Below, piece after piece: positions 16,168 to 47,001 of a DNA stretch of 64,000 nucleotides. The notes under the pieces are model-generated. The model had not been told where the DNA came from. It saw nothing but the letters and a program-made list of their open reading frames with translations, and did not search any database. Location: the IMG/VR virus record IMGVR_UViG_3300042896_000657, positions 49,981 to 113,980 of that record, one strand, 5' to 3'. A program made the translations under genes and the position numbers. Origin of the DNA: a virus. Numbering within the stretch: position 1 is the stretch's first letter; the number at the start of each line of letters is the position of its first letter.

Positions 16168-16301
16168 AGTCAGGTGGCGGAATTGGTAAACGCAAAAGCC
16201 AACTCGTAGTTGGAAGCGAGTTTAAATAAGACAGTCCGAAGTTCGTGGGTGGCATTAGCCTCTGGCACTTTGGCTTACAGGTTCGAATCCTGTCCTGACT
16301 A
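16168..16301 (+). ncRNA. tRNA-Leu-scaffold RNA with variable cargo, copy 1
   Basis: AGTCAGGTGGCGGAATTGGTAAACGC...ACAGGTTCGAATCCTGTCCTGACTA; cargo closed by AAGCCAA/TTGGCTT. Confidence 0.8.
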
Positions 16302-16516: not shown

Positions 16517-16665
16517 AGTCAGGTGGCGGAATGAAGGCACAAAGAGTAATAGTATGTGCTGGATATGGTAGACGCTAAGAAAGAAATTAACTTCGTATCT
16601 AAGTGGAAACACATGGTGGTACACTAAAGCATAATTTCATGCGGGTTCGATTCCTGTCCTGACTA
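16517..16665 (+). ncRNA. tRNA-Leu-scaffold RNA, copy 2 (extra D-loop insertion)
   Basis: Same termini; hairpin GCACA/TGTGC inserted in D loop; cargo closed by GAAATTA/TAATTTC. Confidence 0.75.
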
Positions 16666-16678
16666 CAAGATAATATAT

Positions 16679-16750
16679 TGCGGGGTAGAGCAGAGGTAGC
16701 TCGGAAGGCTCATAACCTTTAGGTCACAGGTTCGAATCCTGTCCCTGCTA
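16679..16750 (+). tRNA. initiator-type tRNA-Met(CAT)
   Basis: 1-72 mismatch, GCGGGGTAGAGCAG body, loop CTCATAA. Confidence 0.85.
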
Positions 16751-16799
16751 CAAATCATAGGATTAATTACCCTATGACTGTCAGGTTCGAAACTGACGA

Positions 16800-18549: not shown

Positions 18550-18652
18550 AGTCAGGTGGCGTAATGGTAACGTGTCACCCTCCAGGTTGAGATAACAGCT
18601 AATGGCACTCTGTATGATAAAGAAGATACAGGTTCGAATCCTGTCCTGACTA
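18550..18652 (+). ncRNA. tRNA-Leu-scaffold RNA, copy 3
   Basis: Same conserved termini, unrelated cargo. Confidence 0.75.
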
Positions 18653-26765: not shown

Positions 26766-26872
26766 AGTCAGGTGGCGGAATGGTAGACGCTAGAAGTGAA
26801 TAGATAAGTAAGTGTATTGTCGCTTAAACAACTTTGCTACTTATCATACAGGTTCGAATCCTGTCCTGACCA
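26766..26872 (+). ncRNA. tRNA-Leu-scaffold RNA, copy 4
   Basis: Conserved termini; cargo stem GATAAGTA/TACTTATC. Confidence 0.8.
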
Positions 26873-26986: not shown

Positions 26987-27109
26987 AGTCAGGTGGCGGA
27001 ATGGTAGACGCTAATGAATTGTCCTGAGATGAGACGATGCCTAACACCAGCAGAGACTTAATGGTGTCCGAGAAGATTAGGTGTACAGGTTCGAATCCTG
27101 TCCTGACTA
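26987..27109 (+). ncRNA. tRNA-Leu-scaffold RNA, copy 5
   Basis: Conserved termini; cargo stems ATGCCTAA/TTAGGTGT, ACACCA/TGGTGT. Confidence 0.8.
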
Positions 27110-27242: not shown

Positions 27243-27400
27243 AGTCAGGTGGCGAAATTGGTAGACGCCTAATAAACTAACAAGTGAGGTAATTAGCACT
27301 TGGTTACGATGGGGAAAAATTCAAAGTAATGTTTTTTAGAAAAGTGAAAAGTAAGAAGTACAATGAAAATCATTTACAGGTTCGAATCCTGTTCTGACTA
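27243..27400 (+). ncRNA. tRNA-Leu-scaffold RNA, copy 6
   Basis: Conserved termini, longest cargo (about 107 nt). Confidence 0.78.
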
Positions 27401-33753: not shown

Positions 33754-34872
33754 ATGGAAAATAATAATTCAGTTTGCTACGTTGCAAAAATAAATGAAAT
33801 TAAATCTATTGAGGGTGCTGATAATATTGAATTAGCAGTAATTGGAGGATGGAATTGTATTACTAAAAAAGGAGAATACAAAGTAGATGATTTAGTAATT
33901 ATAGCTACTACTGATGCTATTATCCCTCAAAATCTATCAGACGCAATGAATGTAACTAATTACTTACGTAAAGGTGGACGTGTACGTACTGTTAAATTAA
34001 AAGGAGTATATAGTGAATGTTTAATCATCCCTAATAAATTTATATTTACAGAATATTACAAAGAAGGAAGCGATATGATGGATAAATTAAGTATCCATAA
34101 ATACGAACCACCGGTTAAACAAATTCAATTAGCATCAGGCCGTAAGATTAAATATAAGGATAATCCTAACTTCCATGTATATTATAAGTTCCCTAATTTA
34201 AAGAATGTTGATGGAATGTTTACTGTAAATGATATGGTAGAAATCACCCGTAAGATTCATGGTACTAATGCTCGTTATGGTATTGTAAAGAAAACTAAAT
34301 TATCATTATTAGATAAAATTAAAAAATTCTTTGGAAATAAATGGATTGAATATGAATTTATTGTTGGATCCCATAATGTTGAAAAAGGATCTGAATCACA
34401 AGGATTTTATGATACTAACGTTTGGTATGATATTGAAAAGAAATATAATATTAAATCTAAATTATGGAATTGGGTTAGAAGACATAACCCTATAGATATA
34501 GGTGAAGGTATAGTATTATATGGAGAAATATATGGTCCAGGTATCCAAAAAAATTATGATTATGGATTAGATGAGATTAAATTTGCTGGGTTTGATATAA
34601 AGATGAATGGAGAATATCTAAATGTAATCAGAGCTAATTTTATAATTACTCAACCCTTATCACTACCATATGTTGAAATATTACATAGAGGTGTATGGTC
34701 TCAAGAGATACAAGATAAATTCACATTCAATAACTTCATTCCAGGAACTAAAGTACCTGAAGAAGGAATTGTAATTAAACATGTGTCTGGTGAACGCCAA
34801 AGAATAGCTAAAGTCATTAATCCAGACTATAGTATATATAGTGAAAAACATAATGTTGGGGATAGCCACTAA
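33754..34872 (+). CDS. RNA ligase, DRB0094/Rnl2-like family
   Basis: N-terminal IEGADNIE OB domain; KIHGTN, GEIYG, FDI, EGIVIK, K motifs. Confidence 0.9.
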   Translation: MENNNSVCYVAKINEIKSIEGADNIELAVIGGWNCITKKGEYKVDDLVIIATTDAIIPQNLSDAMNVTNYLRKGGRVRTVKLKGVYSECLIIPNKFIFTEYYKEGSDMMDKLSIHKYEPPVKQIQLASGRKIKYKDNPNFHVYYKFPNLKNVDGMFTVNDMVEITRKIHGTNARYGIVKKTKLSLLDKIKKFFGNKWIEYEFIVGSHNVEKGSESQGFYDTNVWYDIEKKYNIKSKLWNWVRRHNPIDIGEGIVLYGEIYGPGIQKNYDYGLDEIKFAGFDIKMNGEYLNVIRANFIITQPLSLPYVEILHRGVWSQEIQDKFTFNNFIPGTKVPEEGIVIKHVSGERQRIAKVINPDYSIYSEKHNVGDSH

Positions 34873-35464: not shown

Positions 35465-36316
35465 ATGAAAAACATACACTTAATATCAACGGACAAACCA
35501 AGTAGGTTGTGGACTAATAATCTAAAGAGAAGATTAGTATTAGATGAATTTCCCTCTCAACATCCAACCAATATTGCAAAAAACATCTACATCACATCTG
35601 ATGAAGAAATTAAAGAAGGAGATTGGTGCTTAGATATTTTTTTACAAGCTATATTTCAAGCAAATAGTTTTATGGGTATAAAAACTAAAAACACAGCAAG
35701 AAAAATCATTCTAACAACAGACCAAGACTTAATCAAAGATGGTGTTCAAGATATTAATGATGAATTTTTAGAATGGTTTGTTAGGAATCCAAGTTGTGAA
35801 AGTGTTGAGGTTATTAAAGATTTATTTCAAGTAAATCAAAACAATCCTGTATTAAAAGGAAGTACAGCATTAGTAAAACAACATAAAATCATCATTCCAC
35901 AAGAAGAACCTAAACAAGATTTAGAAAAAGAAATGTTTGAGTTAGAACAGGAACTTGATATACCATCATCTATGAGATGGCACAATTCTAAACCTAAACA
36001 AGAAATCAAATTAGAAGATATTTTTAATGATGAAAAGAAACAAGGTGTAAAAGATTTGATTGATGCACATAAACAAGAAACACTTGAAGAAGTAGCTAAA
36101 TCAGAAGCATTTGAATTTAGTGTTGATTATAAACCATGGGAAACAGATTTAGATTATAGAGAATATGCTGAATATGGCTTTGAGAAGGGTTTTATAGAAG
36201 GTGCTAAATACCAAGCTAAAGGAATGTATAGTGAGAAAGAAGTATTAGCAATGTTATTAATTAAGCACAATGGTTTAACTCCACAATATGTTTTAGAACA
36301 ATTTAAAAAGAAATAA
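35465..36316 (+). CDS. modular hypothetical protein (KQE repeats, MYSE module)
   Basis: KIILTTDQDL, KQETLEE, MYSEKEV...EQFKKK. Confidence 0.75.
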   Translation: MKNIHLISTDKPSRLWTNNLKRRLVLDEFPSQHPTNIAKNIYITSDEEIKEGDWCLDIFLQAIFQANSFMGIKTKNTARKIILTTDQDLIKDGVQDINDEFLEWFVRNPSCESVEVIKDLFQVNQNNPVLKGSTALVKQHKIIIPQEEPKQDLEKEMFELEQELDIPSSMRWHNSKPKQEIKLEDIFNDEKKQGVKDLIDAHKQETLEEVAKSEAFEFSVDYKPWETDLDYREYAEYGFEKGFIEGAKYQAKGMYSEKEVLAMLLIKHNGLTPQYVLEQFKKK

Positions 36317-36317
36317 T

Positions 36318-36524
36318 ATGAGTACAAATTCAATAAACAGAACTAATGACGAGGAAATAATCGACATTATGAACAGTATTTTATCAAATGGTAATATGCA
36401 AGTAGAAACAATTAACGAAGCCATTTTGGTTAAATTAATGGAACTACGAGGCACTCCAATAAAATACAGTAAAACATTAAGAAATATTGACGAGGATTAT
36501 GAGCGTTGGCAAAATGGCTTATAA
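36318..36524 (+). CDS. hypothetical protein
   Basis: ORF. Confidence 0.6.
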   Translation: MSTNSINRTNDEEIIDIMNSILSNGNMQVETINEAILVKLMELRGTPIKYSKTLRNIDEDYERWQNGL

Positions 36525-36583
36525 CTCATTGCAAACCGAACCTTTATATCGCATAGCCACTCACTAACCAAACTTAAAAAAAA

Positions 36584-36742
36584 ATGGAAAAGCAAATTGA
36601 AAATGTGTTTGTCGAAATAGATGGTAATCTCATACCTATAAGAGAACTATCAAAGAGTCAATATGAGACATTCTTAGAAATTATACACCGAATAAGATTA
36701 GCTTATATAACAACAATTGATAAACCCACTAACCAAACTTAA
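36584..36742 (+). CDS. small hypothetical protein (52 aa)
   Basis: Follows CACTAACCAAAC leader repeat. Confidence 0.5.
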   Translation: MEKQIENVFVEIDGNLIPIRELSKSQYETFLEIIHRIRLAYITTIDKPTNQT

Positions 36743-36744
36743 AA

Positions 36745-36939
36745 ATGAAAACAATAAAATTTATCTTATTTATCGAGTTCGTAGCACTATTCGTTTGTGG
36801 TGCTTGTCATTTAGTAGCATTTTTTACCAAAACGGGATTTCCAATATCAATGTATTGGATTATACCATCAATTGTATTAATATGCTGTTTATTGGCAATT
36901 TTCATTATAGCACCTATTGGGGAGTGGTTTCTTTATTAA
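36745..36939 (+). CDS. small 2-TM membrane protein
   Basis: Follows CACTAACCAAAC leader repeat. Confidence 0.6.
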   Translation: MKTIKFILFIEFVALFVCGACHLVAFFTKTGFPISMYWIIPSIVLICCLLAIFIIAPIGEWFLY

Positions 36940-36984
36940 ATTCACCATAACCCAATCACTAATCAAACATAAAAACCAAAAATA

Positions 36985-37326
36985 ATGATAAGAATAAATG
37001 AACTAAAACTAAATAATCTAATAACATACTCAGGAACTAATACGGTGAGAGTGATGAATATTAGTAATACACATCTGGGGGTAGAGAATAATAAAATCCA
37101 GAAATATAAAAAAATAAAGAAATTTAATCCAATACCATTAACGGATGAATGGTTGATGAAATTAGGATTTAAACGAATAGTGAATGATTGGTATTATAGA
37201 GGTGTGTTTGTGCATACTAGGAAACGAGGGTATGTGGTGAGGAGGTCGATGCCACAAGTGGAGTATGTACATCAATTACAAAATGTATTTTTTGTATTGA
37301 AAGGTAAGGAATTGGATGTAGTATAA
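36985..37326 (+). CDS. conserved phage hypothetical (PIPLTDEWL...YVHQLQN)
   Basis: Recognisable Bacteroidota phage family motifs. Confidence 0.75.
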   Translation: MIRINELKLNNLITYSGTNTVRVMNISNTHLGVENNKIQKYKKIKKFNPIPLTDEWLMKLGFKRIVNDWYYRGVFVHTRKRGYVVRRSMPQVEYVHQLQNVFFVLKGKELDVV

Positions 37327-37329
37327 TTA

Positions 37330-37735
37330 AATTCGTTAGAGTAATGGTAAAATAAACGTTAATTCAACGAGTGTTAATGAAATACATAGTAGTGTGCGAG
37401 AAGTGATAAGAGTTTTGTAAAAGTTAGCACTTTTGTGTGAAATTGCTACATAACGTATTATATGTGATGTGTGACAAACAGTGTTTTGTGTAACGAAACA
37501 AGAGTTTCGGGCGCCCGAAACGATAGTTTAGGGTAATGAGAATGCGTATGGTATGTGGAATGTTGTTAGTGTGTGGTATTGTGCGTAAAAATATATACCC
37601 GAACTTTCCCCCGCCACTCCCCCAACTCCTCGTCGACAAAGTATATACTTCACCGCATAATCGTTGGTTTTATTGACGTCCCTACGCGATTTTGTATAAA
37701 CTTGTGTTGTAAATAAGCACTAATGTGATTATTGC
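37330..37735. other. non-coding island with strong compositional skew
   Basis: TG-rich then C-rich, no credible ORF, GTATATAC palindrome. Confidence 0.6.
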
Positions 37736-37765
37736 TTGTCGCAATTAATTTTGTACATTAATGGT

Positions 37766-37942
37766 ATGGAAACAAACGAATTTTTTGCATTATTATTTTT
37801 ATTATTCAATTTATTTTGTTATTTATTTAAAGATAAATACATTTTGTGTAATAAAGCGTGGTTTGTGCTAAAAGCATTCTGGATTGCATTAGCTGTTGTA
37901 CTTGCAATTGGTTTTGTTAAGGATCAATTTAAAAATAAGTAA
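37766..37942 (+). CDS. small membrane protein, probably leaderless
   Basis: ATG right after promoter motif. Confidence 0.6.
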   Translation: METNEFFALLFLLFNLFCYLFKDKYILCNKAWFVLKAFWIALAVVLAIGFVKDQFKNK

Positions 37943-37944
37943 TT

Positions 37945-38270
37945 TTTTACACAACATATTGCGCTTTCACCCGCGTCCCTAGCAATAGGTGTGTAATTTT
38001 GTGTAGGATTTTGTACAAGTGGTTTTGTATAATAATGGTTTTGTACACCAAATATGTAATATATTGCGTTTATGCGCGTTTATATAAATAAGTTTTGTGT
38101 AGAGTTTTGTATAAAGGACCCCACCGCAAAATAAATCGCGGTTTAAATGCGATTTTGTACGCGTAAATAGTTTTTTACAAAGAAAATAAAGGACCCCACC
38201 GCATTATTTTATAAGTTTTGTATAAAGAATTTTGTATAAATGGGTTTTGTCCAAATTAGTTTTGTACATT
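37945..38270. repeat. TTTTGT(A) multimer and 18-bp direct repeat
   Basis: About 10 TTTTGT copies; ATAAAGGACCCCACCGCA at 38111 and 38186. Confidence 0.75.
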
Positions 38271-38276
38271 AATGAT

Positions 38277-38732
38277 ATGAGAGTAATAGAAAAAGATACT
38301 AGATTTGGTCCACGTAAAGCATACACAAACGTAGAACCATTATATAAAATGTTTACCAAAGGTATACGTGTATTACCAGCACCATATTTTGAGGATCGTA
38401 AAATTATGTTTACTTTTGTTGCACAACACGATCCAGGAACACCTGGTTGGTTAGAAGGTGGATATGAAGTGGCTGGTCCAACAGGTGATTTTAGAGCATA
38501 TTATTTAGACCAGTTAATATTACATCCAGAAATAATTAAACGTCGTCACAAAACAGATATTGAGACGAACAAGTCCGGCTTGAAGCGCGGGCGCAAAGGT
38601 GGGGAACCAAAATTCCCTAAAGTAGGTGGAACAGGAAAACGTGGTAGGCCATCAGTTGATCCAGCATTACGTAAGAATAAACCTTATGTCGCAAATGGTC
38701 TACCACGGGGAAGGCGTAAGAAAGTAGAATAA
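38277..38732 (+). CDS. AT-hook-containing DNA-binding protein
   Basis: KRGRK, KRGRP, PRGRRK at C-terminus. Confidence 0.7.
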   Translation: MRVIEKDTRFGPRKAYTNVEPLYKMFTKGIRVLPAPYFEDRKIMFTFVAQHDPGTPGWLEGGYEVAGPTGDFRAYYLDQLILHPEIIKRRHKTDIETNKSGLKRGRKGGEPKFPKVGGTGKRGRPSVDPALRKNKPYVANGLPRGRRKKVE

Positions 38733-38777
38733 GTTTTGTCCAAATCAATTTTATATATTAATGGTATGGAAAAAGAT

Positions 38778-38990
38778 ATGAAAACAAAAATCGAAGAATT
38801 AAGAGAATCAATTGGTAAAATAATGTCACACAACTACAGCCCAATACTTAGAGCAAAGTTAGTTAAAGTGAATAAAGTAACTTGTGTACTTGAAGTAACT
38901 AAAGGTGAATATGTTAAAGATAAAGATTATACTATAGGTATGAGATTTAAAGATAATGTAAGCCATACTTGGAATGCTTTATATTATTAG
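38778..38990 (+). CDS. early hypothetical protein
   Basis: GATATG start after promoter motif (alternative start 38766). Confidence 0.6.
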   Translation: MKTKIEELRESIGKIMSHNYSPILRAKLVKVNKVTCVLEVTKGEYVKDKDYTIGMRFKDNVSHTWNALYY

Positions 38991-39040
38991 TCAGAATCCC
39001 TTTAGTACATTAATGATATAGATAATTAAAACAAAACGAT

Positions 39041-39244
39041 ATGACAAACGAACAAAGCCAAATTTTAAGTAAATTAATTGATGCTAAATGGGATTCAGAC
39101 CACCTAGAATCTTATCACGAACGTGATATTGCACGTCAGAATTATTATAATTTAAAACGTGAATTAGTTGAATCAATGGGATTAGATGAATTTATAGAAT
39201 TTATGAATATGGGAGCAAAAATGTTCGCTCCGGCACAATCCTAA
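39041..39244 (+). CDS. early hypothetical protein
   Basis: Own promoter cassette. Confidence 0.75.
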   Translation: MTNEQSQILSKLIDAKWDSDHLESYHERDIARQNYYNLKRELVESMGLDEFIEFMNMGAKMFAPAQS

Positions 39245-39273
39245 TTGTATATTAACGTATAAGATAAAACGAT

Positions 39274-39438
39274 ATGAAAACAAATAGAGTAAAAGCATTT
39301 GATTTAAGAGAAGAATTAGAAAATAATCATGGAGTAACTCCAGAAAGTTTATTAAACTATTTAATGGATTGTTGGATGTCAGGGGATGATTCATTACAAG
39401 CAGTAGAGGATTTTAAGAATGATGTTATAAATAATTGA
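39274..39438 (+). CDS. early hypothetical protein (54 aa)
   Basis: Own promoter cassette; below ORF-track cutoff. Confidence 0.7.
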   Translation: MKTNRVKAFDLREELENNHGVTPESLLNYLMDCWMSGDDSLQAVEDFKNDVINN

Positions 39439-39492
39439 TTAATCAGAATCCTAATCGTATATTAACGTATTAGATAATTAAAAAACAAAGAT

Positions 39493-39732
39493 ATGAAATT
39501 TATTAGATTAACAAGCCTTAAAGATTCAAAACCAGTATTTATTAATCCAGACTTTATAGGACATATGTTTAGAGTTCCTGAAAAAATGAGTTATGGAAGT
39601 GTTGATGAAGTAGAACATACAACTGTGGGTGTCACAACTCATAATAATGGAGGATTTAAAGTTATAGAAGATGTAAAGCAAATTCTAAAACTGATTGAAT
39701 TGTCAGAATCTCACTCGTACATTAACGTATAA
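39493..39732 (+). CDS. early hypothetical protein, FlbD-like pattern
   Basis: FIRLT...VFINPDFI...VIEDVKQI. Confidence 0.7.
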   Translation: MKFIRLTSLKDSKPVFINPDFIGHMFRVPEKMSYGSVDEVEHTTVGVTTHNNGGFKVIEDVKQILKLIELSESHSYINV

Positions 39733-39753
39733 GATAATTAAAACAAAAACGAT

Positions 39754-39936
39754 ATGAAAAAATTAGATTACGACACATTAGTAATGATTGAAGGTTTAAT
39801 AGATTTAAGAGATTTAGATTTATTTAAAAACGCTTTAGAAAATATTACAAACGATTTAGAAATGGAAGGTTTTGAATTAAGTGATGTCAAAGCATATTTT
39901 CAATTAATATTAAATGAAATATTAGGAGATCAATAG
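39754..39936 (+). CDS. early hypothetical protein
   Basis: Own promoter cassette. Confidence 0.72.
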   Translation: MKKLDYDTLVMIEGLIDLRDLDLFKNALENITNDLEMEGFELSDVKAYFQLILNEILGDQ

Positions 39937-39987
39937 TCAGAATCCACCTCGTATATTAATGGTATAGATAATTAAAAAAAAAACGAT

Positions 39988-40218
39988 ATGAAAAAATTTA
40001 ACGGTTTCGAAAGTTACAATCTAGTAACAGGTTTAGAATTATTAAGAGAATCTTATTTAGCTGATATTAAAGCAGCTACTGATAAAGGCAAACATCACAT
40101 ATTTAGTGAAAGATTTGCAAATGGTACTATTGATGATTTAATTAAGATTGTTAAAGATAATACTAAAAAGGATAAATACGTATTTAGTCATGAATGTACT
40201 CAATATAAAGAAGTTTGA
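39988..40218 (+). CDS. early hypothetical protein
   Basis: Own promoter cassette. Confidence 0.72.
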   Translation: MKKFNGFESYNLVTGLELLRESYLADIKAATDKGKHHIFSERFANGTIDDLIKIVKDNTKKDKYVFSHECTQYKEV

Positions 40219-40234
40219 TAAAAAACAATAGATT

Positions 40235-40389
40235 ATGTGGGGATTAAATTGTAAATATTATACTAAAACATTTAATTCATTAGATGAATTAATTGAGGAT
40301 ATTATGAGTTAGGAATGGATCCAAATTATGAAATAGTCAGAAATGGAAAAATAACCAGCGAAATGGCTATTGATTTTATTGTATTTTAA
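40235..40389 (+). pseudogene. probable frameshifted small gene
   Basis: MWGLNCKYYTKTFNSLDELIEDIMS* continues in a shifted frame as GMDPNYEIVRNGK...IVF*. Confidence 0.45.
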
Positions 40390-40444
40390 TAGTCAAAATC
40401 CAACTCGTATATTAACGTATAAATAAATAATTAAAAATAAAGAT

Positions 40445-40804
40445 ATGACAAAAGAAGAAACATTACACACATTAAGAACCATGAATTTAGTTGGTTCAGT
40501 TTCATTAGGACTTGATAGTGTTATAGCATTGGTTGAGAGTTTAGATTTAATTGAAGTAACTACAGTTAGTGATGAATCTAAAAGTTTAGTAATTAATCAA
40601 TTAATTGAAGAGTTAGATAATGATAACATAGGAGATTTTATGTTAATGCCATCTTCTAATCAAATAATGGATTGTATTGATGATTTTGAAGTTAATATAT
40701 ATGATAAAAGAATTGAACTTGAAGAAATTTATATTGATGAATATAAATTAGCAGAGTTAATTCAAGATGGTGTGAAAAAATGGTTGAATGATAGATTGTC
40801 CTAA
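40445..40804 (+). CDS. early acidic hypothetical protein
   Basis: Own promoter cassette. Confidence 0.75.
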   Translation: MTKEETLHTLRTMNLVGSVSLGLDSVIALVESLDLIEVTTVSDESKSLVINQLIEELDNDNIGDFMLMPSSNQIMDCIDDFEVNIYDKRIELEEIYIDEYKLAELIQDGVKKWLNDRLS

Positions 40805-40961
40805 ATGCGAAGGCTCAGGCTTTCGCTCTGTAGAATCATCCAGCACATATAATGATATAGAATACAATAAACCTAATATACAGGTACCATGTATTGCCTG
40901 TAAAGGTGCTCGTCAAGTTACTAAATTGAAGGCATTTCATATTAATAAGAAATACAAATAG
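40788..40961 (+). CDS. DnaJ-type zinc-finger mini-protein (57 aa)
   Basis: CPKCEGSG...CIACKG. Confidence 0.65.
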   Translation: MIDCPKCEGSGFRSVESSSTYNDIEYNKPNIQVPCIACKGARQVTKLKAFHINKKYK

Positions 40962-41010
40962 TCACAATCCTAATCATACATTGACGGTATAGATAATTAA
41001 AACAAACGAT

Positions 41011-41295
41011 ATGAACAGAGAACTATTTTTAGAAAGTACATTAAGCCAAATTTCACAAGTTTATTCAGGCAAAAATCATAATTGTAGATGTGGTTGTGCA
41101 GGATCTTATACTGCAACTTCATTTATGGATGAACCTAGAGATGATATTAATGATAAGTTAGTAGAAAGAAGATTAAAGAAAGCGAAAGCATTAATTTTAA
41201 ATGGTGCTAATGTTGATTATGCTGAAACTTATGTTAATGTTGAAACTGGAGATAATAGAGCTTTGACATTCTATTTTGATGAAGTAAGAGCTTAG
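41011..41295 (+). CDS. early hypothetical protein (YSG..CRCGCAG)
   Basis: Own promoter cassette. Confidence 0.75.
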   Translation: MNRELFLESTLSQISQVYSGKNHNCRCGCAGSYTATSFMDEPRDDINDKLVERRLKKAKALILNGANVDYAETYVNVETGDNRALTFYFDEVRA

Positions 41296-41337
41296 TCACA
41301 ATCTCTCTCGTATATTAATGGTATAATAAGAAACGAT

Positions 41338-41637
41338 ATGAAAAAAACAAATAAATCAGCAGACGGAACATCATTCCACAACACAATGATTAAAACCACA
41401 ATTGGTGAATTAGTAAGAGTATTAGGTGAACCAACTTATCAACAAAATACAGGTAAAGATAAAGTGAATGTAGAATGGGTTTGTGAAACTATTGATGGTA
41501 ATGTAGTGACAATCTATGATTGGAAAGAATATATTACACTAAGTGAAAATGAAGAAATATTATTTCATTTGGGTGGTCACAGTTTAATCCATACATTGGA
41601 TGGTAAGGATGAATTATTAAGATTATTAGAAAAATAG
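41338..41637 (+). CDS. early conserved phage protein (TIYDWK motif)
   Basis: Own promoter cassette; DKVNVEW, TIYDWK. Confidence 0.78.
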   Translation: MKKTNKSADGTSFHNTMIKTTIGELVRVLGEPTYQQNTGKDKVNVEWVCETIDGNVVTIYDWKEYITLSENEEILFHLGGHSLIHTLDGKDELLRLLEK

Positions 41638-41710
41638 GGTTATGTGTTGTTGTTCAGGATACATAAATGCAAAAGTGAACATGGCGACTCGGAAAGACGA
41701 GTAACAATAT

Positions 41711-41851
41711 AGTCAGGTGGTGAAATTGGTAGACACGCTAATGTAGGCATCTTTAAGATGGACGATTGTACTCCGCAGGTTCACGTTAGTTTATTCTAAA
41801 GAGATATGAGTACACTTAATAGAATTACAGGTTCGAATCCTGTCCTGACTA
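41711..41851 (+). ncRNA. tRNA-Leu-scaffold RNA, copy 7
   Basis: Conserved termini; cargo with crossing TGTACTC/GAGTACA helix. Confidence 0.8.
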
Positions 41852-41946
41852 CAGCAAATTAGAAGTGTCGCAATACGCGTTTCAATCTAATTGATAGACG
41901 TATCAATGAAATATGTTCGGAGGTGAAAATCCTTAGCTTCTAAAAT

Positions 41947-42057
41947 AGTCAGGTGGCGCAATTGGTAGCCAAAAAGGGATGTTGAAGGTAGTAGTAATAC
42001 TCCGCCTCGAACAAGTGTAGGCGACTTTTACAGGTTCGAGTCCTGTCCTGACTACCA
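41947..42057 (+). ncRNA. tRNA-Leu-scaffold RNA, copy 8 (encoded CCA)
   Basis: Conserved termini, ends ACCA. Confidence 0.8.
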
Positions 42058-42102
42058 GGTCGGTTGTAAGTGACATCCCAGAAGTTATGGAACTTTCAAA
42101 TT

Positions 42103-42208
42103 AGTCAGGTGGCGGAATGGTAGACGCTATCTAAAAGATCATATGAAAGGGTGATATAAGACTGAAACGAATAAACCCAATCTACAGGTTCGAGTCCTGT
42201 CCTGACTA
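42103..42208 (+). ncRNA. tRNA-Leu-scaffold RNA, copy 9
   Basis: Conserved termini; cargo complementary to downstream sRNA. Confidence 0.8.
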
Positions 42209-42363
42209 CAACGCGTTTCATATCCGCGTTACAAACGACGAAAGGTCTTCATATCACCTTAGTCACGATGACTTAGTACATGCACCGTTTCATATCCGGT
42301 TTGAGGTTGGAAAAGTCATTTATTTTAATTATCTAAAGCACCTAAGCCGCTCTCGCGGCTTTT
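42209..42363 (+). ncRNA. putative multivalent antisense sRNA against early-gene start regions
   Basis: Three hairpins with loop YTTCATATC; GTCATTTATTTTAATTATCTA; ends in terminator. Confidence 0.75.
42344..42363 (+). terminator. intrinsic terminator
   Basis: AAGCCGC-tctc-GCGGCTT-TT. Confidence 0.7.
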
Positions 42364-42460
42364 GGTGTTGGATTTAACGCATAACACCGTTTATTCAATG
42401 GTGTTCTGTCATAATCACCATCGTACATTGACGGTATAGATAATTAAAACAAACAAAGAT

Positions 42461-42637
42461 ATGAAACTATTAACATTCCCAATCGCGCAATCAAAAAAAT
42501 CAATTTCAATAATTGTAAATTCAAACAAATTAAAATCTGAAGTAAAGATACTATATCCAAACAAAATAATTGTTGATTTAGTTGATTTATTAGTTATTGA
42601 AAAAATGTTGGATCGTAATTACTTAAACTATAGATAA
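42461..42637 (+). CDS. early hypothetical protein (58 aa)
   Basis: Own promoter cassette. Confidence 0.6.
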   Translation: MKLLTFPIAQSKKSISIIVNSNKLKSEVKILYPNKIIVDLVDLLVIEKMLDRNYLNYR

Positions 42638-42670
42638 TCACAATCCACCTCGTACATTAACGTATAAGAT

Positions 42671-42787
42671 ATGAATGATATGAAAACAATACAAATTACA
42701 CAAGATGAAATCCGAATGGCTACAAGGCCTAATGTTTATAGAAGTAAAAAACATTATACACGTAAATCTAAACATAAAACATTATAA
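42671..42787 (+). CDS. small basic protein with ArfA-like C-terminal motif
   Basis: RPNVYRSKKHYTRKSKHK; own promoter cassette. Confidence 0.55.
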   Translation: MNDMKTIQITQDEIRMATRPNVYRSKKHYTRKSKHKTL

Positions 42788-42795
42788 ATAAAGAT

Positions 42796-42999
42796 ATGGA
42801 ATTAACAGAACAACAAAAACAAACAGTATTAGATATTTTATCATTTGCTGATGGTGAGGATATGGAGGAAATAATTGATAGATCTACATTTAAAGATTAT
42901 TTAACAAGATCATTAATTATGGATTGTATAGATGATATAGATTTAAAATATTACTTATCTGAACGTGATGAATTAATTAAAATCTTAAAAAATAGATAA
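42796..42999 (+). CDS. early hypothetical protein
   Basis: GATATG start. Confidence 0.7.
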   Translation: MELTEQQKQTVLDILSFADGEDMEEIIDRSTFKDYLTRSLIMDCIDDIDLKYYLSERDELIKILKNR

Positions 43000-43001
43000 A
43001 T

Positions 43002-43187
43002 ATGTTTGAAGAACAAGTATTTTGGAAAGATGGAGTTGATGGTGAATTTAAGGGTGGAATATTCATTAGAGCATTTGATTTAGTAAAGTTTCTAGAGAAA
43101 GTCGAAGCTGATAGTGAAGGTGGTGAAGTTGTTGGATTAAAGTTTGATGGCAATAATCTAGAGATAATCGTTAAGTCAGAATCCTAA
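43002..43187 (+). CDS. early hypothetical protein
   Basis: ORF. Confidence 0.7.
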   Translation: MFEEQVFWKDGVDGEFKGGIFIRAFDLVKFLEKVEADSEGGEVVGLKFDGNNLEIIVKSES

Positions 43188-43216
43188 TCGTACATTGACG
43201 GTATAGATAAAAAGAT

Positions 43217-43384
43217 ATGAACATAGAAAAAGTAAAGCAAGCCGTAGAATTACAAAAACAAATGAATACTGATATTGATGTATTTGGATGTACTAGTGAG
43301 TATAATTGTAAAATGGTAGAGCGCTTAGTTGATAATATGAGCGATGAAGAAGGCGATTTATTTATAGAATTAATGAATGGATAA
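43217..43384 (+). CDS. early hypothetical protein (55 aa)
   Basis: Own promoter cassette. Confidence 0.65.
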   Translation: MNIEKVKQAVELQKQMNTDIDVFGCTSEYNCKMVERLVDNMSDEEGDLFIELMNG

Positions 43385-43425
43385 TCACAATCCCCCTCGT
43401 ACATTGACAGTATAGATAAAAAGAT

Positions 43426-43662
43426 ATGAATATGACCCAAGAAGAAATTTACCAAGCACAACAAGATCACAAGGAATACCAGAGGTTGATCAACACGGTT
43501 GAAATATTAACTCAAGCAGAATATGAATTCTGTAAGGCATGGGATGATGAGGAAACTTGGAAATACCTATTCGATTTAACTGGTGGTAGATGGTTAAACA
43601 CTAACGTGTATAGTGAGGCTGAGCATCACGATCATATCTATAGAATGGAATGTGGCTTGTAA
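43426..43662 (+). CDS. early hypothetical protein
   Basis: Own promoter cassette. Confidence 0.72.
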   Translation: MNMTQEEIYQAQQDHKEYQRLINTVEILTQAEYEFCKAWDDEETWKYLFDLTGGRWLNTNVYSEAEHHDHIYRMECGL

Positions 43663-43710
43663 TGTCACAATCCATTCAGTATATTAACGTATTAGATAAT
43701 TAGATAAGAT

Positions 43711-43905
43711 ATGAAACAAAATCCAATTAATGTAAGTGAATTAAATGAAGATAGATATGAAATTATTAATAATTTAGTTAATATTGAATTAGTTAAAAAA
43801 TTTATTAATGATGTCGAAGCGTTAGAAATTGATTTAATGAAATCAAATATCCAAGCAAAAGAAATATATCAATATTTGTTAACAATAATGGTTAATCAAT
43901 GTTAG
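43711..43905 (+). CDS. early hypothetical protein
   Basis: Own promoter cassette. Confidence 0.7.
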   Translation: MKQNPINVSELNEDRYEIINNLVNIELVKKFINDVEALEIDLMKSNIQAKEIYQYLLTIMVNQC

Positions 43906-43961
43906 AATAGTCAGAATCACCATCGTACATTAACGTATTAGATAATTAAAACAAAAACGAT

Positions 43962-44192
43962 ATGATCACAAAAACACAATTAAAAGCCGGATTACAATTC
44001 AGGTACAAAACAATGAAATACACACTTAAAGGTGAAGAAGATCAATATTATATTATTGGAGGTGGTTTAATGGGTTATGTAGGTAATGTAGAATCAATAG
44101 GAACCAAGTCATTTACATTATATACCTATGTAATGGGTAAAGCAGTTAAGGTAAAGGTTAATTATAGTGATTGTGAGTTGGTGGTTGAATAA
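43962..44192 (+). CDS. early hypothetical protein
   Basis: Own promoter cassette. Confidence 0.72.
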   Translation: MITKTQLKAGLQFRYKTMKYTLKGEEDQYYIIGGGLMGYVGNVESIGTKSFTLYTYVMGKAVKVKVNYSDCELVVE

Positions 44193-44237
44193 CCCCAATT
44201 CACCTCGTACATTAACGGTATAGATAATTAAAACGAT

Positions 44238-44483
44238 ATGAAAAACGAAATCAATAATATTAGTATTTGTGAATTAATGGATATCATCTTTCCTGGTTAT
44301 TGGGACAAGCAACTATACACTCAGATGTCTTATGATGATGAATGTAAAGCAGTGGGTGAATGGTGTAGGATTAATAATTATGTTCTTTATGAAAAATGTA
44401 ATGAAGATTACTTTGAGTGGGAAGCATTCCAACTAGCCACTACTGGTAGATATGATGGGGTGGTATTAAGTAACTTAAGTTAA
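44238..44483 (+). CDS. early hypothetical protein
   Basis: Own promoter cassette. Confidence 0.72.
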   Translation: MKNEINNISICELMDIIFPGYWDKQLYTQMSYDDECKAVGEWCRINNYVLYEKCNEDYFEWEAFQLATTGRYDGVVLSNLS

Positions 44484-44546
44484 ATGAGTTGCCTGTCAGA
44501 ATCATAATCGTACATTGACGGTATAGATAATTAAAACAAATAAGAT

Positions 44547-44717
44547 ATGAACAAGCAAACACTTTCAAAATTAATCGAAATCACATTAGCAGACACTAAT
44601 GAGTTATTTAAAAACAAAACCGAATCAGAGGCTTATATAATTGGATACCTCCAAGGTACACTAAAAACGATTCAAAAAGAATTAAATGAAGGTTTATTTT
44701 ACGGTATAGAAAAATAA
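44547..44717 (+). CDS. early hypothetical protein (56 aa)
   Basis: Own promoter cassette. Confidence 0.65.
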   Translation: MNKQTLSKLIEITLADTNELFKNKTESEAYIIGYLQGTLKTIQKELNEGLFYGIEK

Positions 44718-44720
44718 GAT

Positions 44721-45008
44721 ATGACAAAGACAGAACGCAACAAAACAATCAACAAATTAGTCTACAAATATGCTGAATCATTAGGCTATGAGGTGGATAT
44801 GAGTGAGATAGATGTTAATTTCATCCCCGAATCAGGTAATATGGATGATTGTATTGAATATAGAAGATCATCACACTCAGTGGCTGCCTATAATTGGGCA
44901 TGTGCAAAAACATTGAATGATGAAAAGTTGATTGAGGATTATATTGATGATGTGAGTGTGTTAAGTGATGATGAATTAGCTGATCAAATGCGTGCTGTAC
45001 AAAAATAG
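44721..45008 (+). CDS. early hypothetical protein
   Basis: GATATG start. Confidence 0.72.
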   Translation: MTKTERNKTINKLVYKYAESLGYEVDMSEIDVNFIPESGNMDDCIEYRRSSHSVAAYNWACAKTLNDEKLIEDYIDDVSVLSDDELADQMRAVQK

Positions 45009-45009
45009 G

Positions 45010-45310
45010 CGCATCGTACAAAAAAGGTGCGATTTGTAAAAAAGGAGTCATCGCTAGCGGCCCGCTAATGGGTCGCGTGCGTTCCTCTCCCATGGCAATT
45101 GCGGTCCATCGATGGTGCGCGTGTTTGTAAAAAACACCAGGTGTATTCTCAACGCAACAACAACCTCCAACCATCGACAGTATATACGCATATACCTCCA
45201 TAAATCAAATCCAAATTTCAAAATAACCCCTTTTGGACCACTTTGCGCAATCCGCAATTCAAACTCTTGAACGATTTTTTTGTCTAAAAACAAGTATATA
45301 CGAAAAATGT
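45010..45310. other. GC-richer non-coding island
   Basis: No credible ORF; two GTATATAC palindromes. Confidence 0.6.
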
Positions 45311-45385
45311 GGCTTGGTCAAGATTTCTCTCGTATTTTTTATTAAAATTAAAATAATTTAAACATTTACAAACACATTTACAACT

Positions 45386-45601
45386 ATGAACAATCACAAA
45401 GAACACTACAAATTGAAACAAGATTATTATGGTAATGAGGATTACAGAAAACGAGCATTTTGGATATTAAATTCAGATAACAAATATTCATGTAATTTTG
45501 TGTTTTTTCAAGACCTTAAAGAATGGGTTGAATGGAAAAGAGATGAAGGACACACCGTAGAAATTAAATATGCAGAAGGACATAAAAATATAATAACTTA
45601 A
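45386..45601 (+). CDS. hypothetical protein
   Basis: ORF. Confidence 0.65.
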   Translation: MNNHKEHYKLKQDYYGNEDYRKRAFWILNSDNKYSCNFVFFQDLKEWVEWKRDEGHTVEIKYAEGHKNIIT

Positions 45602-45612
45602 AAAATAAAAAT

Positions 45613-45876
45613 ATGAAAGCATTTAAAGATTTAGAATTCAAAAAATTACCCGACTTAAGTGGAATATATTGTCGCATTATATTTGAAAATGGATTTGGTG
45701 CAAGCATTGTAAAACACAAATTTTCATATGGTGGCGATAAAGGATTATATGAAATCGCAGTATTAGATGATATTAACGGTTCACCAATCTATTATACGTC
45801 AGTTACTGATGATGTGTTAGGACATCTTTCTGAAGATGAGGTTATGTTCCATTTAAATGAAATTGAAAATCTATAA
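45613..45876 (+). CDS. conserved phage protein (FENGFGAS...SYGG..GLYEIAVL)
   Basis: Recognisable phage family. Confidence 0.8.
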   Translation: MKAFKDLEFKKLPDLSGIYCRIIFENGFGASIVKHKFSYGGDKGLYEIAVLDDINGSPIYYTSVTDDVLGHLSEDEVMFHLNEIENL

Positions 45877-45881
45877 TAAAA

Positions 45882-46352
45882 ATGACAAAGCGAATATCTT
45901 TGGATGAGGCAAAACAAAACTTTTTGCCTAAACCCTCAAACATGCCATTAAATAAAGATACATTTTTTACATTAACTCCAGACCCACTAGATTCTGTTAC
46001 TAATATTATTAATTATTGGATTGAAAAATTCAGATTTGATGCTCACCTATCATTTAATGAGGGGTATATTTATATTTTAGAAAATAAAGGTATTCCTGGT
46101 GTATTAAAAATAGGATACACGGATAGATCTGTTCAAGATAGAGTAAAAGAAATTAATAGAGGAACAGGTGTTATTACTACGTGGTATATTGTTTCTTCTT
46201 TTCCCTGTAAATCTCCAAAACATATTGAGACAATTATTCATCAAAAATTAAAATCATTTAATATTAATAAAGAGGGATTTGGTATAAAACTACACGAAGC
46301 CGAGCATATTATTGAGCAAATAATAATTGAAAACAACGCTCAAATTAAATAG
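45882..46352 (+). CDS. T5orf172/GIY-YIG domain protein
   Basis: GYIYIL...LKIGYT...RVKEIN..TGV...E..IH. Confidence 0.82.
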   Translation: MTKRISLDEAKQNFLPKPSNMPLNKDTFFTLTPDPLDSVTNIINYWIEKFRFDAHLSFNEGYIYILENKGIPGVLKIGYTDRSVQDRVKEINRGTGVITTWYIVSSFPCKSPKHIETIIHQKLKSFNINKEGFGIKLHEAEHIIEQIIIENNAQIK

Positions 46353-46482
46353 CGCGTAATTATGTTGTGGACTTAAATTTAGTTGATTAAAACGTTGTAT
46401 GTACGTATATACGTATTGAAGTATGAGGGGTGTGGTAAATGGCAAATTGCATATATTTATTATTAACTAAAAACATAAAAAA

Positions 46483-46749
46483 ATGGATTTACCAAAAACA
46501 TATAACATTAAATTAGAGGATAAGGCTGCTTTTGTCAATAAGGCAGAGAAAATGGGAATGACAATTGATTCGTTTGATATTAAAGATAATAAAATAAACG
46601 ATACGTTTTCTATTACATTAAATACACCTCAAGATGTTGAGATTGTTAAAGCTGTGTTGAAGTCTTCACCTAAAATTAATGATGTTAATATTAGTGAAAT
46701 AATTAGTAAAGAAATTAAACAACAAATTCAAGAATATTTGGAGAAGTAG
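46483..46749 (+). CDS. hypothetical protein
   Basis: ORF after ATATTTAT motif. Confidence 0.7.
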   Translation: MDLPKTYNIKLEDKAAFVNKAEKMGMTIDSFDIKDNKINDTFSITLNTPQDVEIVKAVLKSSPKINDVNISEIISKEIKQQIQEYLEK

Positions 46750-46792
46750 GATATTTTTCGTAGCTTCTACCTAAATATAAAATAAATAATTT

Positions 46793-46996
46793 ATGAGGTA
46801 CAAAAATAACGTTTTAGATCAACTTGTTAGAGCAGAAGGAATATTAATGAGAATTAACTTAGAAGTAAGTAGAGGGATGTCTCAAAATACAACACTTAAG
46901 ACAATTGAGGATTTGAAAGAACAATTAGAATCAATTAGAGGGATGATCCAAATAGAACCCGATGATTTTGAACAACAATTCTCTCCAAACAGATAA
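46793..46996 (+). CDS. hypothetical protein
   Basis: ORF. Confidence 0.7.
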   Translation: MRYKNNVLDQLVRAEGILMRINLEVSRGMSQNTTLKTIEDLKEQLESIRGMIQIEPDDFEQQFSPNR

Positions 46997-47001
46997 TTAA
47001 T

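Follow-up and report, generated by a model that had tools for sequence, protein, structure and literature searches.

The c4 RNA of phages P1 and P7 acts in trans: it is an antisense RNA whose exposed loops pair with sites overlapping a translation start in mRNA of the phage itself. It is cut from a longer transcript by RNase P and controls one operon, icd/ant, in a temperate phage. Early genes can also be shut off by a protein: RegA of T4, itself an early product, binds the AU-rich start regions of many early mRNAs and shuts off their translation as infection proceeds (compare the RegB nuclease). In Staphylococcus aureus, RNAIII and RsaE present the same C-rich seed in several hairpin loops and direct it against the ribosome-binding regions of many mRNAs. 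Other small RNAs are freed from spacers and trailers by tRNA maturation, among them 3'ETS-leuZ of E. coli, which is a sponge for other sRNAs, and the stable RNAs C and D encoded within the tRNA cluster of T4, for which we know of no target. The PeSL cassettes of T4-type phages make up a hyperplastic early region, in which many small genes lie behind a near-identical promoter and leader. They have been proposed to be recombination modules, and we know of no report of an antisense RNA aimed at their leaders.

We analyzed 64 kb, hereafter the window, that form the right-hand part of a virus record of 113,980 bp with 28.7% G+C. At 42209-42366 on the plus strand it contains a predicted small RNA, which we read as a trans-acting antisense RNA, made from a tRNA-like precursor, that would mask the start codons of a class of early genes; we put the probability of this reading at about 0.6. 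The closest known system is c4 (immI; Rfam C4, RF01695), together with the related CI RNA of P4, the likeness being one of mechanism and not of homology. Like those of c4, the loops of the window RNA are complementary to phage mRNA sites that overlap the translation start, here at 13 early starts. Unlike c4, the window RNA has no RF01695 match in a covariance-model scan of 36000-47000 at E <= 1, and it is therefore not a member of the c4 family; the Rfam matches in this 36-47 kb region at that threshold are to tRNA only (three). The target differs as well, being the start codon of about 19 separately promoted early genes in a large, apparently lytic phage, and so do the layout, in which the loop can occur as many as three times, and the signal for processing, which is a separate tRNA-like element. 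The logic would be that of T4 RegA with RNA instead of protein as the recognizing agent, and since recognition would be by Watson-Crick pairing, loop and leader co-vary. The repeated loop is laid out as in RNAIII and RsaE, but those are host RNAs acting on the Shine-Dalgarno (SD) sequence, whereas here phage loops face the AUG and its flanks. The tRNA-linked position is shared with 3'ETS-leuZ and T4 RNAs C and D, except that the upstream elements here lack an anticodon arm and thus are not real tRNAs. On its target side, the window resembles the PeSL cassettes. An own terminator, no coding frame, an accessible conserved seed, and joint change of seed and target are what one sees in trans-acting base-pairing sRNAs generally, and also here. 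We found such an RNA nowhere described in literature searches; a 2025 review on phage-derived sRNAs contains neither tRNA-linked nor early-gene-directed RNAs, and the stretch 41600-42700 matched nothing at the nucleotide level in the GenBank phage collection.

The predicted RNA is roughly 155 nt long and extends from a tRNA-like element (copy 9) to a terminator. The initial annotation had described three hairpins with unrelated stems and one loop, and every element that it listed is in place. Hairpin 1 (42210-42230) has a 6-bp stem, AACGCG/CGCGTT, and a 9-nt loop, TTTCATATC, at 42216-42224; hairpin 2 (42242-42260) has a 5-bp stem, AAGGT/ACCTT, and the loop CTTCATATC at 42247-42255; and hairpin 3 (42284-42300) has a 4-bp stem, ACCG/CGGT, and again the loop TTTCATATC, at 42288-42296. 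All three loops read YTTCATATC, the reverse complement of GATATGAAR. Stem pairs have probabilities of 0.82 to 1.0 in hairpin 1, 0.83 to 0.98 in hairpin 2, and 0.44 to 0.49 in hairpin 3, and the mean probability of the loop being unpaired is 0.96, 0.97, and 0.67, respectively. Hairpin 3 is enclosed in domain 3 (42267-42320) by an outer 8-bp stem, 42267-74/42313-20, with pair probabilities of 0.53 to 0.64. At 42323-42335 there follows a 13-nt leader mirror, TTTTAATTATCTA, which is predicted to be single-stranded (mean P(unpaired), 0.72). In line with the earlier description, it is the exact complement of TAGATAATTAAAA, and it is the sole exact reverse-strand copy of that 13-mer. The closing terminator was also seen correctly: an intrinsic terminator occupies 42344-42366, with a 7-bp stem containing 5 G-C pairs (pair probabilities, 0.9 to 1.0) and a 4-nt loop in the hairpin at 42344-42361, followed by the T-rich tail TTTTGGTGTT. 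No plus-strand ORF of at least 30 aa lies within 42209-42366. One element has to be reinterpreted. GTCAT at 42315-42319 had been taken for a further pairing seed. In the predicted fold its partner is ATGAC at 42268-42272 in the RNA itself, the two belonging to the 8-bp stem (P about 0.6), and so GTCAT is probably structural and no fourth seed. The loop motif TTCATATC has seven plus-strand copies in the whole 113,980-bp genome, three of them inside the 80 nt of the three hairpins, and both strands of the window together have 25 copies, compared to 6.5 +/- 2.5 in shuffles.

The predicted targets, at 38277-44730 on the plus strand, are small ORFs, 19 in number, with the start GAT-ATG; in 13 the start reads GATATGAA, and most have their own promoter/leader module. 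Both counts are for starts between 38,277 and 44,721; the earlier ones, for 38.3-44.7 kb, had been about 20 and 14. The small RNA is on the same strand as all early genes. The early module, which precedes about 20 small ORFs at 39.0-44.6 kb, consists of GTCAGAATCC, four or five bases, TCGTAYATTAAYGGTATAGATAATTAAAACAAA(C)GAT, and the ATG. GATATGAA has 19 copies in the genome, all of which are in the window and 17 of which lie at 38,461-44,544, all on the plus strand; this distribution excludes chance. TAGATAATTAAAA has nine exact plus-strand copies, eight of them in early leaders. The proposed antisense relation of the RNA to the leader and start codon that the early genes share is supported, and at 13 early starts GATATGAAR is exactly complementary to the loops. 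The exact start context is present in only about half of the promoter-proximal genes. In three ORFs (37766, 38277, and 38766), the ATG comes merely 6 nt after the TAYATT core (GTACATTAATGGT-ATG), and their mRNAs would be leaderless. From this spacing, TAYATT would be the -10/-7 element and the start of transcription would be near GGTATAG, which would put TAGATAATTAAAA at the extreme 5' end of the early mRNAs.

The phage itself points to the type of host. Its nearest cultured relative is Flavobacterium phage vB_FspM_immuto, with a baseplate protein 44% identical to that of the window phage. An SD-like motif precedes only 3.3% of the genes, compared to a background of 8.7%, and the sequence upstream of starts is A-rich, which fits a Bacteroidota host. 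In Flavobacterium johnsoniae, initiation is favored by an adenine at -3 (PMC6847099). The G(-3) conserved in the early genes is therefore not the host optimum, and it pairs with the last C of the loop.

We ranked all start regions of the genome by the energy of their duplex with the RNA, and the top eight are all early genes. On early starts, the median energy of the loop duplex lies between -7.5 and -7.75 kcal/mol, compared to about -4 kcal/mol elsewhere in the genome, and GAUAUGAA starts reach about -7.6 to -8.7 kcal/mol. With the leader mirror, eight early leaders form duplexes of -13.7 to -17.4 kcal/mol. Loops and target sites are both predicted to be accessible, and opening of the target site costs a mean of 0.8 kcal/mol, which leaves a net value of about -7.3 kcal/mol per loop at 37 C. 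A 9-nt hairpin loop cannot easily form the full 9 pairs. Because binding by a single loop is weak, control would need high RNA levels, several loops, leader pairing, low temperature, or a helper protein.

Relatives of the element were collected by screening the trailers of the tRNA-like 3' half, followed by targeted scans of IMG/VR and of metagenomes. The trailers contain hairpins with the loop CTTCATAAC, and strong terminators follow them. An automated count returned 83 loci with the hairpin, on more than 25 different stems and directly before terminators; one of them (L311) is a chance match without promoters, which leaves 82 confirmed loci, from searches anchored on TTCAT or on the tRNA-like end and with loop variants lacking TTCAT beyond their reach. 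The closest relative, the metagenome contig L516, shares hairpin 3, the leader mirror, and the terminator with the window. Domain 3, with its predicted outer stem, and the leader mirror are identical in sequence there. L516 has two hairpins only: hairpin 2 is absent, and the first hairpin carries an unchanged loop on the stem AAATGGA/TCCATTT. A second informative contig, L250, is among the 25 IMG/VR loci with a relative of the 99-aa ORF found upstream of the RNA in the window (41338-41637). In L250, the homologous gene is followed by a mini tRNA-like element and the hairpin TACAGGA-CTTCATATC-TCCTGTA, and then by a second TTTCATATC fused to a partial leader mirror, a stem-loop, and the next early promoter. 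In both contigs, then, the loop is retained and the stem replaced. The loop is present three times in the window, twice in L516, and once in most relatives; judged from these contigs, multivalency is peculiar to the lineage of the window. The closest relative by promoter motif, G001, is a contig that stops at about window position 40927, short of the RNA region. A scan of IMG/VR for three TTCATATC copies within 40 nt of each other found no homolog, most of what it picked up being tandem repeats inside coding regions, and a scan for a tRNA-like end followed by TTCATATC gave the L250 contig only. Further loop classes, mirroring other common start contexts (AAA, ACA, AAT, and so on), yielded nothing convincing.

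Are these hairpins maintained as RNA? We aligned 29 distinct hairpins, 3 from the window and 26 from relatives. The loop core TTCATA-C is invariant, at 7 of the 9 loop positions, and compensatory changes are found in all 6 stem pairs. The number of alignment cells changed on both sides is 49, compared to 15 +/- 4 in shuffles, none of which reaches 49 in 500 trials, and 82% of cells are paired, compared to 28 to 46% when the partners are slid. Eleven of the cells are G-U pairs, which would be A-C mismatches if read on the other strand; being valid on the plus strand only, they point to a plus-strand RNA. Compensatory stem changes around an invariant loop core show that the hairpins are genuine RNA structures kept by selection. 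On this comparative evidence, the element is a plus-strand RNA hairpin in which sequence selection acts on the loop and not on the stem.

The loop does vary at one base, and this base faces mRNA position -2. Failure of loop and leader to covary in relatives had been named beforehand as grounds for giving up the antisense interpretation, and we find that they do covary over the 82 confirmed loci: AAC goes with GTT-ATG and ATC with GAT-ATG. At each locus, we noted which three bases precede the first ATG that lies no more than 70 nt past a GTAYATT core and opens a frame of at least 30 codons. In the 76 loci with the loop ..CATAAC, 324 of the 640 promoter-proximal genes have GTT-ATG and 22 have GAT-ATG. 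In the 6 confirmed loci with the loop ..CATATC (the window, L516, L250, and the L250 variants L490, L541, and L533; an automated listing of 7 had included L311), GAT-ATG precedes 36 of 51 such genes and GTT-ATG precedes 4. Among loci with at least five such genes, GTT exceeds GAT in 51 of 52 of the first kind, and GAT exceeds GTT in 4 of 4 of the second; none is contrary. Fisher's test on gene counts in an earlier, smaller set gave p = 3e-23, a value to be read with the caveat that gene counts are not independent events. The ..CATATC loci fall into two sub-lineages that have their leader type in common. Large as they are, the gene counts therefore cannot be taken as independent observations, and the covariation amounts to one nucleotide position and probably one evolutionary switch. 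The ACCG/CGGT stem carries the loop CTTCATAAC in ten loci, and hairpin 3 of the window is its ortholog with the loop TTTCATATC. Since one stem occurs with either loop, the difference between the loops goes back to a point substitution in an old hairpin and not to a fresh copy of the leader.

The 5' side of the RNA is set off by the tRNA-like elements. Three of them lie upstream on the plus strand: copy 7 (41711-41851; 40.9 bits with the Rfam tRNA model), in which acceptor, D, and T arms are present and a 79-nt insert replaces the anticodon arm; copy 8 (41947-42054; 28.6 bits, just below the gathering score); and copy 9 (42103-42208; 37.4 bits), with the discriminator A at 42208. The 3' end of copy 9 is thus 1 nt upstream of hairpin 1, and in at least 24 relatives a hairpin begins 1 to 5 nt past the same ...GTCCTGACTA end. 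It is this 3' end that would set where the small RNA begins, and from position only, we infer that the RNA is released by tRNA-maturing enzymes. The window contains nine such elements in all, with a common acceptor stem, a Leu-type D arm, a T arm, and unrelated inserts of 50 to 100 nt at the place of the anticodon arm; the other six are at 16168-16301, 16517-16665, 18550-18652, 26766-26872, 26987-27109, and 27243-27400. Their common 3' half, GGTTCGARTCCTGTCCTGACTA, is found at no fewer than 120 IMG/VR loci, often several times per contig. The insert of copy 9 (42129-42181) contains near-copies of the target motif (ATATGAAAG and GGTGATATAAGAC). We considered a "latch" in which this insert pairs with hairpins 1 and 2, as it does in the minimum-energy fold of 42103-42366 (z = -1.9). 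In L516, an unrelated insert stands before the same RNA, so this pairing is not a conserved part of the system, and we rejected it.

An early-type promoter/leader module, GTCACAATC...TCGTATATTAATGGTATAATAAGAAACGAT, is located at 41295-41337 on the plus strand and matches the module of the approximately 20 small ORFs. The first gene of the predicted transcript is the 99-aa ORF at 41338-41637, which has no PHROG match. Its start context reads GATATGAAA, making it a predicted target itself. Between the promoter at 41295 and position 42344 there is no terminator-like site, and the earlier placement of the small RNA downstream of this promoter is retained.

The features of the locus suggest the following mechanism, in which we infer transcription from 41295, release by tRNA enzymes, a block of 30S binding, and a role as a timer. 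A precursor made from the promoter at 41295 would contain the ORF, three tRNA-like elements, and the small RNA at its 3' end. Host nucleases of the RNase P/RNase Z type would recognize the tRNA-like elements and free the RNA, leaving hairpin 1 at the 5' end and the terminator hairpin at the 3' end of the mature molecule. The three 9-nt loops would then pair with G(-3)AUAUGAAR(+6) of early mRNAs, and in about nine of these mRNAs the 13-nt single-stranded segment would pair with the very 5' end of the leader (UAGAUAAUUAAAA). Ribosomes of the host type initiate without SD pairing and need an unstructured, A-rich start, and a duplex over the AUG should therefore block 30S binding. Coming from an early promoter, the RNA would accumulate and progressively shut off translation of the early class. 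As to origin, the element reads in reverse as a leader and start, in some relatives with the promoter core too, which suggests an inverted duplication of the target module. The RNA probably arose as such an inverted copy of promoter, leader, and start, whose flanks later became stems. Of the initial sRNA interpretation, the antisense match, the predicted covariation, and the position are supported, and the GTCAT seed and the anticodon mimicry discussed below are not. What the sequence comparisons support is complementarity, specificity for the early class, selected hairpins, co-evolution of loop and leader, and a position between a tRNA-like element and a terminator.

The same complementarity and the same covariation would be expected if the pairing served another purpose, namely silencing of the early genes of a superinfecting relative in the manner of c4 of P1, for immunity or exclusion, or cleavage or stabilization of the mRNA instead of a ribosome block. 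The leader/start module is common to many related phages, and the RNA would thus recognize competitors of the same leader type, with the two leader/loop types acting like immunity groups. The RNA comes from the promoter class that it targets, inside the early block, and this makes self-regulation the simplest explanation, although the sequence does not separate self from non-self. We regard another purpose as unlikely, at odds of perhaps one in seven.

A still less probable account dispenses with mRNA pairing: the loops would be protein sites or mimics of a Met-type anticodon loop, and would act as a decoy that draws a host anticodon nuclease or would soak up an RNA-binding protein in the manner of a sponge. 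Protein sponges of the CsrB and RsmZ kind do present several identical loops, each on a stem unrelated to the others, but the GGA motif of that type is absent from the repeated loops, which read YUUCAUAUC. The central 7 nt, UUCAUAU or UUCAUAA, resemble the loop CUCAUAA of the phage's own tRNA-Met (16679-16751), and the initial annotation had proposed that the loops mimic an initiator anticodon. These 7 nt fit the pattern U33-CAU-purine 37 only if the end nucleotides of the loop are ignored; the loops are 9 nt long, not 7. The hallmark of initiator tRNA, three consecutive G-C pairs, is absent from AACGCG, AAGGT, ACCG, and the more than 25 other stem variants. Against the proposal speaks the variable A/U loop position, the equivalent of nucleotide 38, which tracks position -2 of the local leaders while the phage tRNA-Met keeps CUCAUAA: it follows the phage's own leader and not a tRNA, and mimicry gives no reason for it to change together with -2 of dozens of leaders. 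The adjacent 13-nt leader mirror, too, is explained by pairing alone. A conflict over tRNA cleavage is suggested by an Rnl1-type RNA ligase gene at 33754-34872 (PHROG 968, E = 3e-56), which together with the 20 tRNA genes of the phage hints at tRNA repair against host anticodon nucleases.

Least probable of all, at less than one chance in ten, is that there is no RNA function and the element is a decaying inverted promoter-leader-start module, or that its motif copies are bound as double-stranded DNA by a regulator whose other sites are GATATGAA at each early gene: the element's tail does resemble leader plus start on the reverse strand (TAGATAATTAAAATAAATGAC), the reverse strand of some relatives has a near-consensus promoter core, GTATATT, and a DNA site reads alike in both orientations, so that a shared DNA-binding protein would also produce covariation with the leader, but neither decay nor a DNA site leads one to expect compensatory stems around an invariant loop, more than 25 stem variants, G-U pairs valid on the plus strand only, or retention directly before terminators in the 83 loci of the automated count (L311 being the chance match). 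A gene or promoter on the reverse strand of the window was rejected as well, because no promoter core lies upstream of the motif and the ATG opens a frame of 9 codons only.

If the antisense reading is correct, one small RNA is aimed at the start-codon context itself, with the GAUAUGAAA leader as the form of its target, and at least one of the puzzling tRNA-like elements of these phages gains a role as a processing handle. This bears on the timing of early genes in large lytic Bacteroidota phages and on class-wide translation control without SD. GAU/AUC and GUU/AAC form a natural compensatory pair of the kind that an experimenter would design, and the RNA may lend itself to a simple RNA tool with which groups of flavobacterial genes could be knocked down. 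We give roughly even odds to a broader proposal, in which the window RNA would represent an undescribed and widespread class of regulators: in phages of hosts that do not use SD pairing, short hairpins that are processed from tRNA-like precursors and carry a mirror of the start codon and its flanks in an anticodon-like loop would switch off a whole early regulon by direct pairing with the AUG region, and loop and leaders would co-evolve as a matched pair that may define immunity-like groups.

The survey also brought up elements of other kinds. A candidate loop class, TTCATCA after tRNA-like ends, was rejected because it is the first hairpin of a different and larger conserved RNA. This RNA is more than 120 nt long, begins CACGGTTCGGTTCATCACCGAATAGTATG... 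directly past tRNA-like 3' ends in many freshwater phage contigs (L486, L487, L502, L113, L494, L534, and others), and has no Rfam match at E <= 0.1. In a subtype of the hairpin (L593, L595, L596, L601, L620, and L624), ACCG-CTTCATAAC-CGGT is directly 3' of an ORF, with no tRNA-like element between, and the stop codon TAA of the ORF appears inside the loop. The tail that follows the hairpin in this subtype mirrors the promoter core as well as the leader (GTATATTTAAGATAA on the opposite strand). Another hairpin, with the constant loop GAAAGA on varying stems (for example, ACTCG-GAAAGA-CGAGT), occurs shortly upstream of tRNA-like elements, in the window at 41687-41702. It is found in many related phages, L010, L020, L036, L064, L107, and L250 among them, and is possibly another processing or protein-binding signal.
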